From: Escherichia phage Lw1
Length of the DNA stretch: 64,000 nt
Reading direction: 5' to 3' (one strand)
Sequence record: KC801932
Both the position numbers and the translations under genes were made by a program. The notes under the pieces were generated by a model. That model was not told where the DNA came from, did no database searches, and worked only from the letters and a program-made list of their open reading frames with translations. Within the stretch, counting starts at the first letter, position 1; each line of letters begins with the position of its first letter. Positions 54,387 to 62,336 of the stretch are shown here, piece by piece.

Positions 54387-56675
54387 ATGATTTCAAAACT
54401 TAACCCGTTACCAAAGATCCCGTTTGTTGATGGTGTCCCTTCGGACACCACACAAACCCCGATCAGTTGGATTCTTAACGGTGAGACTCTCGACGGGGCC
54501 AAAACAAAGGTCACTAGCGAGGGTTCTTTAAACAGATGCGGCGTTCTGGTTCAAAAGAACGCGGTGCAATTGGAAACAAACACCATTACGCAAACGGCAA
54601 AAATCAACGAAGTTATCGATCAAGTTAACCTCATTAGTGAAAACCTCGCGGCTATTTCTGATGAAAGCGTGATCGAAAAACTGGATCAGGTCGTTGCTGA
54701 TGTGGAAGTGTTAAAAGTCGATATGACTGCGGTTCAAGGTTCTACCGCAAGCAATACCCTGAAAATTCAGGATCTCGATAAAGATATCGGGACATGGGAT
54801 GCTACAACAGATCCAAAACACCGAACCATTCGCAAAGATATTATTTTTCTGAAAGGGGAAATGGGCGCATATCCTGGATTTAATCAGGACGGTGACGTAG
54901 ATCCTACTTCAACTGGCTCTGGAATGAAATACAAAATCATGACGAACGCGCAAGCGATTTCGATTCATGAAGGGCGTATTACCAGACTGGAAGACGATTG
55001 GGCCAACTCAGATGTAGGCCATTTAACTGATGAAGTTACCGACTTGCGTAATGAAATGGGGCCGAAACATTTAGCAACGTTTGAATCGGTGTACGTTCGT
55101 CTGAATAAAATTGGTACGGATATCACTGGGATTAATACCGAACTGACAGAAATCAACCAATATATCGGTCGTACTGGTACAGGTGGTTCTGGAAGTATTT
55201 CTGCTCGAATGACTACGGCAGAAACGAATATTGTTACTCTGCAAACGCAGATGAATGATTCTTCCGTTGGTGTTCTTCCTCGCGTAATTTCTCTTGAAAA
55301 CCAAGTTGGGAATTCGCAGGTTCCGGGTAGTATTCGTTATGATATCAGTAATATCAAACGTGACATTAGCGACCTGAATATGGTTGTTGGTGAATCAAGC
55401 GATGAAGGGCTACGGGGCGAAATGGCTCAGGTTATGTCCGATATCGGTACAGATTCACAACCTACAAGCATTAAAGGCCGTCTGCTTAACGTAGAGAATA
55501 CGCAGCGCGACGATCACCAGCGTTTGATTGATGTCGAATCTATTGTTGGTAACACCTCAAGCGGACTTGTTGCGGCTAACATCGCAATGGGTAAAGCGGT
55601 TTATGGTGATGCAACCAGTTCAGATCCGTTCCTCAAAGACGGTATTCAGAAAACGACTCGCGATAGCAAAACTGCAATTGGTGTCAACACTACAGGTTCT
55701 GAAACTGGAATCTATAAGTTGATTTCCGATCTGACTGCTCGTGTTGCTGCTCTGGAAAGTGGTTCTGGTAGTGATCTCGAACAGCGTGTTTCCGATCTTG
55801 AAGTCAATAAAGCATCGCATCAGGACGTTACAAACGCACTGGTTCCGTATATTACTGAAACTGAGGCCGATATCAAGTACGAACCGAAGAAGATTCCGCT
55901 TGCGTTCACTCAAAACCTCGTTGGTCGAAATGATTATATCGAAGGTGATGACATTTCTCTGATGGTTACTGTATCTGGTGGTAAAGTCCCTTATGCGTAC
56001 CAGTGGAAGAAAGACAACGCGAACGTAGGTACGAACGCATCAAGTTTGATGATCCAGACCATCACATCGGCTAACGCTGGCGTGTATAAGGTTGAAGTAA
56101 CTGACGCAGATAACACGGTTATCACTTCTAACGAATTGACAATTGCTGTTTATCCGGTTCCTCAGTTCGATACTAACCTGGCTGATAAATCAGTGGTTGA
56201 CGGTGATCCTCTGACTCTGGAAGTTGTGTATAGCGGCGGTAAACCTTCGTACACTTACGAGTGGTTCAAAGATAACTCTGTTATCTCTGGGGCAACATCA
56301 GCAACATTTACCAAATCTGCGGTTACAAGTGCCGATGCTGGTGAATACTATGTTTCTGTGACTGACTCGATGAACAACCAAAATGATTCAGTGAAAGCAA
56401 ATGTGACGGTAACACCACGTCCTGCACTGGCATTCACTACGGATCTGAGTTCTACTAAATCATATAGCACAGGTGCTGATATGGACCTTGCTGTTGTCGT
56501 AACTGGTGGTAAAACACCATATACGTACAAATGGTTTAAAGACACTGCGGAAATTTCCGGTCAGACAGGCGCAAGCCTTACCACTGTAGCAGAAGATGGA
56601 GTGTATAAAGTCGAAGTGACTGATGCACTAACGACTAAAATCACATCAACTGAATGCACGGTAACTGTTGCATAA
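54387..56675 (+). CDS. wac: fibritin (wac, whisker) with three C-terminal Ig-like domains
   Basis: N-terminus LP.IPFVDG......ISWI.NGE..GA.T...SEGS.NR like recalled T4 Wac; central coiled-coil heptads; three about 85-aa repeats (GGK.PY.Y.WFKD....G.....T..A..GVYKVEVTD) replace the foldon. Confidence 0.75.
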   Translation: MISKLNPLPKIPFVDGVPSDTTQTPISWILNGETLDGAKTKVTSEGSLNRCGVLVQKNAVQLETNTITQTAKINEVIDQVNLISENLAAISDESVIEKLDQVVADVEVLKVDMTAVQGSTASNTLKIQDLDKDIGTWDATTDPKHRTIRKDIIFLKGEMGAYPGFNQDGDVDPTSTGSGMKYKIMTNAQAISIHEGRITRLEDDWANSDVGHLTDEVTDLRNEMGPKHLATFESVYVRLNKIGTDITGINTELTEINQYIGRTGTGGSGSISARMTTAETNIVTLQTQMNDSSVGVLPRVISLENQVGNSQVPGSIRYDISNIKRDISDLNMVVGESSDEGLRGEMAQVMSDIGTDSQPTSIKGRLLNVENTQRDDHQRLIDVESIVGNTSSGLVAANIAMGKAVYGDATSSDPFLKDGIQKTTRDSKTAIGVNTTGSETGIYKLISDLTARVAALESGSGSDLEQRVSDLEVNKASHQDVTNALVPYITETEADIKYEPKKIPLAFTQNLVGRNDYIEGDDISLMVTVSGGKVPYAYQWKKDNANVGTNASSLMIQTITSANAGVYKVEVTDADNTVITSNELTIAVYPVPQFDTNLADKSVVDGDPLTLEVVYSGGKPSYTYEWFKDNSVISGATSATFTKSAVTSADAGEYYVSVTDSMNNQNDSVKANVTVTPRPALAFTTDLSSTKSYSTGADMDLAVVVTGGKTPYTYKWFKDTAEISGQTGASLTTVAEDGVYKVEVTDALTTKITSTECTVTVA

Positions 56676-56710: not shown

Positions 56711-57634
56711 ATGATTACGAACAACCCTGAACAATTGAAGGATGAAATTCTTCGTCGTCTGGGCGCACCAATCATCAAAATCGAAATCACACAAGACCAG
56801 ATTTACGATTGCATTCAACGCGCACTGGATCTGTATGCGGAATATCATTACAACGGAACAAACAAAAGCTATATTATTCTGACACTGGGCGAAGATAACC
56901 CACGCAACGTATTTGATTTGAGCAAAGAACACATTTTCGCGATCACAAAAGTATTGCGTACAAATATCGGTTCCCTGGTTTCTATGGATGGTACAGCGGT
57001 TTATCCGTGGTTTACCGATTTCCTGATGGGGCTTACTGGTGGTTCATTGGGCGGTCGCTGTTCATCCAGTGTATACGGTATGAACGCATACGGTGCGGAT
57101 CTGGGGTATTTTACACAGATGATGTCCTATCAGCGCTCGATGCAAGATTTGCTGGCTCCGTTGCCTGATTACTGGTACAACGATGACACTGGTCAATTTT
57201 GCGCATGGGGTAAAGTCAACTACGGTGATATCATTGTTATTGAAGCGATGGTCCGTTCTTTCGTTGACGTTCCTAGTGCCGTAGGAAGCGTTGCAGGATA
57301 CGCTACAGCGGGTTCTAACGCAGTAGAAGACCAATCTATAGCCGACATCTACGATAACCCTTATAACGCGGTTGTGGGCGGTGTACGTGCGGGGCAGGGA
57401 ACAACTGTTACTGGTGGAACCTCTGCATATAACAACCGTTGGGTAAAAGACTACTCGACCGCGCTGGTAAAAGAAATCAACGGACAAATTCTGGCTAAGT
57501 TCCAGGGTATGCAATTGCCTGGTGGTGTTGCTCCTGATGGAACGCGACTGATCCAGGAAGCAGAAACCAAATTACAAGGATTGCGCGACGAACTGATTTC
57601 TATGTCTGACGCAGTTCCTATTATTATGGTGTAG
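56711..57634 (+). CDS. 13: neck protein gp13
   Basis: 307 aa (T4 309), synteny. Confidence 0.7.
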   Translation: MITNNPEQLKDEILRRLGAPIIKIEITQDQIYDCIQRALDLYAEYHYNGTNKSYIILTLGEDNPRNVFDLSKEHIFAITKVLRTNIGSLVSMDGTAVYPWFTDFLMGLTGGSLGGRCSSSVYGMNAYGADLGYFTQMMSYQRSMQDLLAPLPDYWYNDDTGQFCAWGKVNYGDIIVIEAMVRSFVDVPSAVGSVAGYATAGSNAVEDQSIADIYDNPYNAVVGGVRAGQGTTVTGGTSAYNNRWVKDYSTALVKEINGQILAKFQGMQLPGGVAPDGTRLIQEAETKLQGLRDELISMSDAVPIIMV

Positions 57635-57642
57635 GGGGAATA

Positions 57643-58389
57643 ATGCAAAACTGGGATGAAAGTTTATTCGCTCAGTTGTCAACGGGAGAGGGAGTTGATC
57701 GCAACTTAAAGGATCAAGTTACTAACCCGTATGTAAACTGGTACAAATATAACCCGACACAACAGCTACACGATTCACTGACAGCAGAATCCATACAGAT
57801 GAAATCACCTGATATGTATTATGTCAGACGTGAATTTGTGAATATAGATAAAATACTGGGTGAAGACCGAGAATCTAAATTTACGAAATCGTGGAAGATT
57901 GCGGCATATATTGAATCATACGCCAACTACGAAGGACAGCGGGACTTCTTTAGCAAATTTGGGTTGAGTTCTAACGACGAAATGACGCTGGTACTGAATC
58001 CGCGTTTATTTGCACATCAAACTGATGGTGGTATTCCTGTGTTGGGGGATTTGATTTATTTCCCTATGGACAACAGCCTGTTTGAAATTACATGGGTGGA
58101 AGCAGATCCGTTCTATCAGTTCGGTGATCGTCCTCAACGTAAAATCAACCTGGCTAAATTCATCTACACGGGCGAAGAATTGGCTCCTGAATTGCAGCGA
58201 AACGAGGGAATCCATATTGAACCTGATGCAGAACTGGATCTTGAACCTATTCGAAATCTCGACGGGCTGGCAGATATCAACATTGAACAGTACGAAGAAG
58301 ACAAAGAATTTGAAAAAGAAAGTGACGAGTTCATCGATTCTTTTGATGTTGTCAACGGACGCGGATCTCCATTCGCAACGTTGCCCTAA
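57643..58389 (+). CDS. 14: neck protein gp14
   Basis: 248 aa (T4 256), synteny. Confidence 0.7.
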   Translation: MQNWDESLFAQLSTGEGVDRNLKDQVTNPYVNWYKYNPTQQLHDSLTAESIQMKSPDMYYVRREFVNIDKILGEDRESKFTKSWKIAAYIESYANYEGQRDFFSKFGLSSNDEMTLVLNPRLFAHQTDGGIPVLGDLIYFPMDNSLFEITWVEADPFYQFGDRPQRKINLAKFIYTGEELAPELQRNEGIHIEPDAELDLEPIRNLDGLADINIEQYEEDKEFEKESDEFIDSFDVVNGRGSPFATLP

Positions 58390-58398
58390 ATAGTTTAT

Positions 58399-59172
58399 AT
58401 GGGTATAGGCGAAAGTCTGTACCCTCTTCGAAGAGGATTTTATGATATGGTTGCAAAAATCTCTATAGAACAAAGAGAACATCAATTAAAAGAACGTTGT
58501 GCGGAATTAGAACTATCTTTTGATGGATGGGTAGACCAATCAGCGATCACAAAATATTCAAAGTTTTATGTTGTTTGCAGTAAAGGACATAGAACAGAAA
58601 AACAGATCAAACCATTTGTCAACAAAAGTCGTCCAAACGGATGTTATTTGTGTTCCCCTAAGATGAAAATATCAAAGGAAAACAGAATCGAGGAAATCAA
58701 AACTCTTGCAGATTCAATTGGATATACATTCGTAGATTTCGTTGGGGTGTATAAAGATGCACACACAAAAATATCAATGGTTTGCGATAAAGGCCATAAT
58801 TGGGATGTAAGTATAGTTGCTTTTCTCAATCAAGGTCATCGCTGTAAAAAATGCGCAACGTCTGGGTTCAATCCGAACAAACCAGCATACGTATACGTAC
58901 AATCACTATCTGGAAAATTTCTGAAATTTGGGATAACCAACAGAACACCAAAGAAAAGAATGTGTGCGCAATCAAATAAATCCGTTTATAAACACGAACT
59001 GGTTTATCAAAAATTATTCGATAAAGGTATTGATGCAATGAGTATTGAACAGAAGATCAAACAATCTCTTGTTTGTGGCGTAGTCGATAAATCAGATATG
59101 ATGGATGGATATACAGAAACAACAGATATATCCAATTACGATAAACTGTTGAATATTATAGAAGGAGTATAA
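58399..59172 (+). CDS. T5orf172/GIY-YIG-like putative homing endonuclease inserted between genes 14 and 15
   Basis: two C-x-KGH...C-x2-C zinc-finger-like modules followed by AYVYVQSLSGKFLKFGITNRTPKKR (GIY-YIG-like); start may be the internal MVAKIS. Confidence 0.5.
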   Translation: MGIGESLYPLRRGFYDMVAKISIEQREHQLKERCAELELSFDGWVDQSAITKYSKFYVVCSKGHRTEKQIKPFVNKSRPNGCYLCSPKMKISKENRIEEIKTLADSIGYTFVDFVGVYKDAHTKISMVCDKGHNWDVSIVAFLNQGHRCKKCATSGFNPNKPAYVYVQSLSGKFLKFGITNRTPKKRMCAQSNKSVYKHELVYQKLFDKGIDAMSIEQKIKQSLVCGVVDKSDMMDGYTETTDISNYDKLLNIIEGV

Positions 59173-59174
59173 AA

Positions 59175-59992
59175 TTGTTTGGCTACTGGTATAATAGCTC
59201 ACTGCGTAACTACATTGTTCTTATGGGACAATTGTTTAACCATGTTCAGGTTAAAAGAGTTCGCGGCGACCAAGAAAAATTTATTAAGGTTCCAATTACC
59301 TACGCATCGAAAGAGAAATTTCTTGCTTCCATGAATAAACTCAACTATGCGTATAGTCAGGAAAACGTAGCAAAGACGGAAACCATTTTACCGCGAATGA
59401 ACTTATCACTGGTCGATCTGCAATATAACGCAATTCGTAAAACCAGCATCGCGGTCAACCAAAAAATGACGCAATTGCAATCACCCCGCAAGACGATCAC
59501 GCAGTTTAACCCTGTGCCTTATCGTTTAATTTTTGAACTGGGTGTGTATACGCGATATGAAGACGACATGTTTCAGATTGCAGAACAGATTTTACCGTAT
59601 TTTCAACCACATTTCAACTGCAAGATTACCGAACTGCATAAGAACGAAATCACAGTTGACCGAGACATCAAAATCAGTCTCCAGTCGGTTGCACCAGATA
59701 CAACGTTTGAGGGCGAAGCATCACAGCGCCGACATGTTGAATGGTCTTTCATGTTCGAATTGCAGGGTTATCTGTACCCGCCTGTTACTGACGTTAAGGG
59801 CGAAATCAGAACAGTATACACGGATTTCTTTGCCAATATGAACCCATTGGATAAAGATAACTTTGAATCCGTTGATAGTCAAGCCGATCCGGTAGATCTG
59901 CCTTTGCAGGATTACACGGGCGAAGAATATATTCAGACGTATTCGCACGATAAGCCGATCCCGTCTGGTGATGAACCTCCTAAGCCGAGGGA

Positions 59993-59996
<4 letters not shown>
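59175..59996 (+). CDS. 15: tail sheath stabiliser / tail completion protein gp15
   Basis: MFGYWYNSS.RNY..LMG.LF recalled from T4 gp15; apparent TTG start with GGAG RBS 7 nt upstream. Confidence 0.85.

Positions 59997-62336
<2,340 letters not shown>

Follow-up and report, generated by a model that had tools for sequence, protein, structure and literature searches.

Two groups of free-standing homing endonuclease genes (HEGs) are the closest described counterparts of the element reported herein. HEGs that combine CapR/DUF723/DUF4379 zinc fingers with a T5orf172 domain are known from ICP1, T5-like phages, and Aeromonas phages (Barth, Dunham & Seed 2023, PMC10448857). T4 itself does not possess this class, and neither RB16-type phages nor the start codons of host genes are discussed in that study (PMC10448857). 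The other group comprises Seg (GIY-YIG) and Mob (HNH) of T4, free-standing endonucleases that spread by intronless homing (Edgell, Gibb & Belfort 2010, PMC2988022); this review contains no case of a cassette that brings along the start codon of the host gene following it (PMC2988022). The present study concerns a putative free-standing HEG between neck gene 14 and gene 15 of Escherichia phage Lw1, in a stretch of 64,000 nucleotides (sequence record KC801932) that we refer to as the window; the parts of the locus lie on its plus strand. The HEG occupies positions 58447–59172 (241 aa, stop codon TAA at 59170–59172). Based on comparisons with related phages, we consider it probable that this gene belongs to a CapR/T5orf172-like cassette that inserts between genes 14 and 15, where such genes have landed repeatedly in T4-like phages, and carries the start signal of gp15 with it, and that the TTG start codon of gp15 is a later change that spread by hitch-hiking.

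The protein shares with the T5orf172/CapR class repeated N-terminal CapR-type fingers, a C-terminal nuclease of the GIY-YIG superfamily, and a free-standing gene. It also shares placement beside essential structural genes, at loci common to other HEG classes; T5.141, a homologue with 37% identity, is located before the tape-measure gene of T5. However, the Pfam T5orf172 model misses the window protein, and the link to the class is through the predicted fold and the homologues. The features in common with T4 Seg and Mob are a promoter-less cassette between essential genes, a hairpin sequestering the ribosome-binding site (RBS), the co-conversion of flanking markers, and close stop/start spacing, which suggests translational coupling (PMC2988022). 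The domain order is the reverse of that of Seg, with the DNA-binding modules here being N-terminal and the nuclease C-terminal, and the protein is, thus, not of the Seg type.

The nearest relatives are RB16p203 of Escherichia phage RB16 (NC_014467), an annotated "endonuclease", and the same gene in the Cronobacter phages leE, JC03, and Cronuts and in the Klebsiella phages phi1_146010 and phi1_146015. Their products are 98–99.6% identical to the window protein, and all of them likewise lie between genes 14 and 15 and precede a gp15 that starts with TTG. The window is RB16-like Pseudotevenvirus DNA, and its gp14–gp15 stretch is 97.3% identical to that of RB16. Six nucleotide differences over the 726-nt gene separate the window copy from that of RB16, with nothing else of substance; the gp14 3' end and spacer of the window are more diverged (86–90%). 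Existing annotations of RB16, leE, and Cronuts begin gp15 at the TTG. A different cassette, of the MobE type, occurs in RB43, Miller, HMGUkp1, Taquito, and the Slopekvirus KLB25. It shares the insertion site and a leader with a hairpin masking the Shine-Dalgarno (SD) sequence, its ORF stops 1–3 nt short of gp15, and the SD of gp15 is encoded in the final codons of this ORF. However, it encodes an unrelated nuclease family (NUMOD3, weak HNH), and its gp15 starts with ATT, not TTG.

A preliminary description of the window had noted that genes 14 and 15 are adjacent in T4 and are separated here by an endonuclease-like open reading frame (ORF). Both observations hold: T4-type genomes (L021–L023) have 41 nt between the two genes, and the window contains an ORF at 58399–59172 (257 aa from ATG) followed by the gp15 ORF at 59175–59996. 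The distance between the two genes is 58–80 nt in those insert-free relatives that were examined and 785 nt in nine carrier records. The region is shared by 89 related phage records, 49 of which lie beyond the matches listed; insert-free calls cover the listed ones. The gene, at an amino-acid identity of at least 95%, was present in nine records, always at the 14/15 site, while a MobE-type HNH/NUMOD3 gene or its remnants occupied this site in 19, and the remaining records among the matches listed had an insert-free span. The ORF is an endonuclease-type mobile gene that most relatives lack, and not a conserved structural component. Gp15 started with ATG at all 17 empty sites sampled first. It started with TTG at all eight loci with this cassette (seven distinct carriers; RB16 was fetched twice) and with ATT at all 12 MobE-type loci (11 distinct; RB43 was fetched twice). 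The ATT loci include the decayed remnants in Fraggle and phi1_146002, the Slopekvirus KLB25, a lineage with 79% identity (L013), and the metagenome contig L078, which was the only real gene 15 among 43 loci returned by a DNA-pattern scan of metagenomes for the gp15 5' end; the others were chance matches.

The insert is 99.0–99.7% identical between genomes in which gp14 and gp15 are approximately 90% identical. Its boundaries are sharp, at 58424/58425 on the left and within gp15 nt 69–86 on the right. JC03, leE, and Cronuts are identical to RB16 across gp15 nt 1–69 and differ from it by approximately 10% beyond about nt 87; compared with the insert-free leB, their gp15 differs at nt 1, 9, 12, and 36–69, and then almost nowhere. 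Since the differences between carriers and non-carriers stop at these ends, the mobile unit appears to extend from approximately 58425 to 59243–59260 and to include some 23 codons of gp15 along with its SD and TTG. A co-conversion tract moving with the cassette is thereby delimited in gp15 (nt 1–69, 59175–59243). Carriers and non-carriers differ most strongly in a 40-nt stretch of this 5' tract (13 mismatches, against a mean of approximately 5), and because the strongest divergence falls there, the region of gp15 nt 1–69 is the best candidate for the recognition or cleavage target of the endonuclease.

The start of gp15 at TTG (59175–59177) is well supported by comparative evidence. As originally described, the TTG begins 3 nt after the TAA of the insert, and a GGAG (59164–59167) is present within the last codons of the insert. 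The complete SD, AAGGAG (59162–59167), is in the codons for E-G-V, 7 nt before the TTG. Its duplex with the anti-SD has a free energy (dG) of -8.3 kcal/mol, against -4.3 kcal/mol at native ATG sites and -5.6 kcal/mol in ATG-linked homologues. Gp15 (273 aa) matched PF16724 (tail sheath stabilizer/terminator) with an E value of 1.7e-97. A phmmer comparison with the T4 gp15 structures 3J2M/4HUD (E value of 8e-85) aligned residues 1–272 with chain residues 1–271 and the TTG with Met1. No upstream in-frame start was present up to an in-frame stop 11 codons before the TTG. We regard this start as supported because of the Met1 alignment, the upstream stop, the strength of the SD, and the conservation of codons 2–16 (FGYWYNSSLRNYIVL), which rank with the best-conserved parts of the family. 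Initiation at the next ATG, codon 17 (59223), instead of at the TTG is highly improbable, even though this ATG is the annotated gp15 start in JC03, phi1_146015, HMGUkp1, Miller, Taquito, and KLB25, and RB43 has been given a start even further inside the gene. Codon 17 is not preceded by an SD (dG of +0.6 kcal/mol, against the value given above for the TTG), and residue 17 is Leu in some lineages (L088 and L020) and, thus, is not conserved as an alternative start. Furthermore, all 17 non-ATG haplotypes retain codons 2–16 intact, even at an overall identity of 47%. Many database records, among them those of RB43, Miller, HMGUkp1, JC03, Taquito, and KLB25, lose 16–28 gp15 residues because annotation pipelines avoid TTG or cannot call ATT.

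The TTG appears to be younger than the insertion. The Logan contigs L039 and L041 carry 73%-identical homologues at the same junction, followed by gp15 with ATG. The 3' end of these homologues, ggaataTAAaATG, is nearly the same as the signal of native empty sites, ggaaaaTAAaATG. The signal of the window, ggagtaTAAaaTTG, differs from that of L039/L041 in two respects: one inserted T, which converts ATG to (A)TTG, and an A>G change extending the SD. Because L039 and L041 combine a member of this gene family at the junction with an ATG, the sequence comparison indicates that the TTG is a later change within the RB16-type cassette lineage and not a condition of insertion. The preliminary description had proposed that the insertion was accommodated by recruiting a non-ATG start. 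The location of the SD in the insert and the TTG as the sole usable start are in agreement with our results; however, the insertion did not require a non-ATG codon. The L040 copy of the endonuclease (94% amino-acid identity, synonymous divergence dS 0.32) is also followed by TTG and is mosaic with respect to the window. It was considered as evidence that the TTG had persisted over a long divergence, but this was dropped, as L040 is a mosaic with ends near-identical to those of the window. The divergence of L040 is restricted to 58650–59000 (CapR module 2 and the beginning of the nuclease domain), which looks like the domain shuffling described for the CapR/T5orf172 endonuclease class.

The cassettes appear to have replaced one another at this junction. 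The left end of the window cassette is a leader (tcttcgaagaggattttATGAT, 58425–58446) that matches the leader of MobE together with the initial 5 nt of its ORF. It is identical in the remnants of Fraggle and phi1_146002 and shows one A/G difference in HMGUkp1 and Taquito. Because of this match, the RB16-type cassette is interpreted from its sequence as a chimera in which the CapR/GIY-YIG ORF took the place of the MobE ORF. Taquito, Fraggle, and phi1_146002 have MobE with ATT on a JC03-type gp15 tract. MobE cassettes have a much shorter right-hand tract, extending 3–12 nt into gp15; the 5' gp15 sequences of the near-isogenic pairs Miller and L009, and KLB25 and L010, differ only at nt 3, or at nt 3 and 6. 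MobE-like genes were also found at the junction in L120 (ATG), L125, and L136 (both ATT). Beyond the conserved "DNC" motif, their C-terminal tails correspond to the local start signals, and the L125 tail equals the signal of the insert-free L130. Because HEG tails match local native signals, these sequences suggest that HEGs land upstream of a pre-existing start signal and then read into it. The uninserted ATT sites in L085 and L130 may be scars of lost MobE genes or native signals that MobE entered. The codon aligned with gp15 Met1 is ATT in the MobE-occupied genomes (RB43, L003, position 2938; also L004, L030–L033, L013, and L078). In RB43-type loci, this ATT follows a strong GGGGGA SD, and an in-frame TAG is present two codons before the ATT in RB43 and L013, where this was checked.

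These observations may be explained by the following scheme. In a mixed infection, genomes lacking the insert would presumably be cut by the enzyme within or close to the beginning of gene 15. The subsequent repair would copy the whole unit, namely, the leader, the endonuclease ORF with its AAGGAG, the TTG, and the first approximately 23 codons of gp15, such that the native "AGGA...ATG" of the recipient would be exchanged for "AAGGAG...TTG". The TTG itself would have arisen in the cassette lineage, through the 1-nt T insertion and the SD-strengthening A>G change, and subsequently hitch-hiked. Several points weigh against this scheme. Cleavage, homing, and the N terminus of gp15 are all readings from sequence comparison alone, the target site was deduced solely from the asymmetry of the co-conversion tract, and the high identity of the insert may arise through ordinary recombination without nuclease drive. 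Moreover, the relationship between SD strength and start codons described below is a correlation across related haplotypes, four of which entered the set on account of wrong starts assigned by gene callers.

Three other explanations need to be weighed against this scheme. The insertion may have destroyed or displaced the native start signal, with a non-ATG codon being recruited as an accommodation. The association between cassettes and start codons within Pseudotevenvirus and Slopekvirus is perfect (ATG at empty sites, TTG with this cassette, and ATT with MobE), and non-ATG starts across haplotypes were found in 6 of 8 inserted and 11 of 37 uninserted ones (Fisher's exact test, p=0.039), a weak link between haplotypes that are not independent. 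We consider this explanation unlikely: the two ATG-bearing contigs with the same gene family and the MobE-like gene of L120 show that ATG can accompany an insertion, TTG or ATT is already present in 11 of 58 uninserted IMG/VR loci, and the match between the tails of HEGs and native signals suggests landing upstream of a signal that was already there. A perfect rule equating insertion with a non-ATG start held in the first loci and was broken by wider sampling. Alternatively, the change of the start codon may itself confer immunity of the target site in a competition between HEGs, with the ATG region being part of the recognition or cleavage site of one or both endonucleases; the altered codon would then shield carriers from their own enzyme or from the rival cassette. 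Two unrelated cassettes alter the same 1–2 nt (AAAATGTTT to AAAATTGTTT or AAAATTTTT), the two near-isogenic pairs differ in almost nothing else in 5' gp15, and the cassettes replace each other, as indicated by the MobE/ATT loci on a JC03-type tract and the MobE leader in the window cassette. However, a mismatch abutting a large heterology is co-converted in any case, and linkage alone is sufficient. The L039 and L041 carriers retain ATG, and MobE has evidently displaced the other cassette; therefore, the TTG is not a complete barrier. We consider selection for immunity to be rather doubtful, though a less remote prospect than accommodation.

The third explanation concerns the protein, which may be a domesticated DNA-binding regulator similar to the satellite repressor CapR, and not an active homing nuclease. 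The preliminary description had recognized two C-x-KGH...C-x2-C modules, which correspond to two CapR-homology zinc-finger domains (Pfam PF21817, E values of 7e-18 to 9e-18, two stretches) and are the best-scoring feature of the protein. Module 1 is at about 58507–58656 (C44/H48/C66/C69) and module 2 at 58696–58857 (C113/H117/C133/C136). The CapR encoded by the PLE satellite of Vibrio is reported to be a repressor that evolved from endonucleases of this kind (PMC8096241, PMC10448857). The remainder of the protein is a GIY-YIG-like (T5orf172-like) domain at 58873–59169, which opens with AYVYVQSLSGKFLKFGITNR, the segment previously singled out as GIY-YIG-like, and the best match of its predicted alpha/beta fold is to GIY-YIG nucleases. 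Residues Y150, K160, G162, R171, E201, and E224 of this domain are invariant across 20 homologues. This invariance argues against a regulator, and the presence/absence polymorphism, 99% identity over diverged backbones, and co-conversion tract are all suited to mobility; we consider domestication to be very unlikely. Among the same 20 homologues, four matched T5orf172 (best E value, 1.6e-3), four MUG113 (4e-4), and two GIY-YIG (6e-4), all weakly. The predicted fold, these weak matches, and the invariant residues together point to a GIY-YIG-type nuclease. In Pfam searches at E<=10 with the C-terminal 98 aa and with the whole protein, only CapR and DUF4379 were matched; PF10544 (T5orf172), MUG113, and the canonical GIY-YIG model PF01541 were not, and NCBIfam and a profile search of PDB sequences gave no match to the nuclease domain. 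The insert protein matched PHROG 681 ("endonuclease") at 1e-62, and homologues were present in 510 phage records. The endonuclease is under purifying selection, with a dN/dS (nonsynonymous to synonymous substitution) ratio of 0.08 versus L040; in comparisons with L039 and L041, the proportion of nonsynonymous differences (pN) was 0.17 and synonymous sites were saturated.

The preliminary description had given the insert gene as 257 aa from 58399. While this frame is open, the gene most likely starts at 58447. The ATG at 58399–58401 has no SD and sits in the 5' arm of an intergenic hairpin predicted by RNA folding (58401–58424; 10-bp stem, GAAA loop) that is outside the insert. This hairpin is native to the 14/15 spacer and is also present in the insert-free Margaery, leB, and KPN12i, and the alignment of the insert with empty sites splits immediately after it. 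Every homologue begins with MVAK or MVAR at the position equivalent to 58447, and the annotations of RB16, leE, JC03, and Cronuts agree; we assign the start on these grounds. The SD of the endonuclease, GAGG (58433–58436), is sequestered within a small hairpin/palindrome (58423–58437), which is a known feature of T4-type HEGs (PMC2988022). In the insert-free Margaery (L002, 2257–2305, the frame of window 58399), the ATG of the spacer hairpin opens a 15-codon ORF (MGIGGSLYPTTHTGK) whose stop, a TAA, is 1 nt away from the ATG of gp15. The endonuclease ORF ends with the same type of stop in the same frame, which may be coincidental.

Non-ATG starts are not restricted to loci with an insertion. 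The gp15 start in 65 T4-like IMG/VR loci was ATG in 48, TTG in 10, ATT in six, and GTG in one, and further uninserted TTG and ATT cases were found where gene callers had truncated or extended gp15. TTG was observed at the uninserted loci L096, L097, L107, L108, L111, L118, L119, L122, and L131, and ATT at L101, L130, L085, L088, and L089. After grouping into 45 start-signal haplotypes, there were 28 with ATG, seven with TTG, nine with ATT, and one with GTG. Non-ATG starts are always paired with a strong SD, and their frequency, particularly that of ATT, is far above that usually encountered. The mean SD dG was -8.9 kcal/mol for TTG, -9.4 kcal/mol for ATT, and -7.3 kcal/mol for ATG, with non-ATG signals being stronger (Mann-Whitney test on the 45 haplotypes, p=0.0009). 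These sequences suggest that gene 15 in general tolerates or favors weak start codons paired with strong SDs. Gp15 is needed only as a hexamer, six copies per virion, in T4 (PMC12929629), and this tolerance may be due to so small a requirement. The distant T4-like contig L020, with a GTG start for gp15, has in its 14/15 spacer (2322–2477) two direct copies of a palindromic element of approximately 47 nt (aaaagtgatcgagttatctcttatagtcttatagaaataactcgatca), which looks like a small repeated intergenic element.

Gene 14 (57643–58389; neck protein/head closure Hc2) matched PF11649 (E value of 3.9e-87) and PHROG 679. Gp14 and gp15 are separate, complete ORFs, with gp13 and fibritin upstream and the terminase subunits downstream. 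Neither a group I intron nor any other known RNA family in Rfam was matched over 57600–60100, and no second copy of the endonuclease gene was present elsewhere within the 64-kb window. No T4 late promoter (TATAAATA) or sigma-70-type promoter was detected in or beside the insert, terminator-like matches around it were no better than the shuffled level, and the RNA fold at the gp15 start was unexceptional (z = -0.18). Overlapping the stop codon of gp14, the majority of relatives show ATAAATA, which resembles the core of T4 late promoters; at this place (58384–58394), the window reads CTAAATAG. Two ATGs are candidate starts of gene 16 (small terminase): that at 59993 overlaps the gp15 stop (ATGA), and that at 59999 is the RB16 annotation. 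The fibritin (wac) homologue (54387–56675) ends C-terminally with three tandem repeats of approximately 90 aa, each bearing a "GGK(V/P/T)PY(A/T)Y(Q/E/K)W(K/F)KDN"-like motif. They look like Ig-like repeats; the product of a relative (L085) has a weak match to Pfam Ig_3.

The gene itself is ordinary: it belongs to a known class of selfish nucleases and is already annotated in RB16. A broader interpretation, which we offer only tentatively and regard as somewhat short of an even chance, is that the 14/15 junction is an arena of rival HEG cassettes, each rewriting the gp15 start from ATG to TTG or ATT with a stronger SD, that AUU is a genuine and recurrent start codon of gp15, and that some uninserted AUU or UUG sites may be scars left by HEGs. 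ATT was found in nine independent start-signal haplotypes, in several of which an in-frame stop closely precedes the ATT and no alternative start is available. What is new is modest, namely, that a start signal travels with a homing cassette and that gene 15 probably uses AUU and UUG starts recurrently. Non-ATG starts of gene 15 are unusually frequent (17 of the 65 sampled genomes), and the locus provides evidence of the turnover of one endonuclease for another at a single site. The junction also appears to be a clean natural example of a co-converted tract that holds the RBS and start codon of an essential host gene; therefore, homing at this site would alter the translation of that gene and not just its neighborhood.

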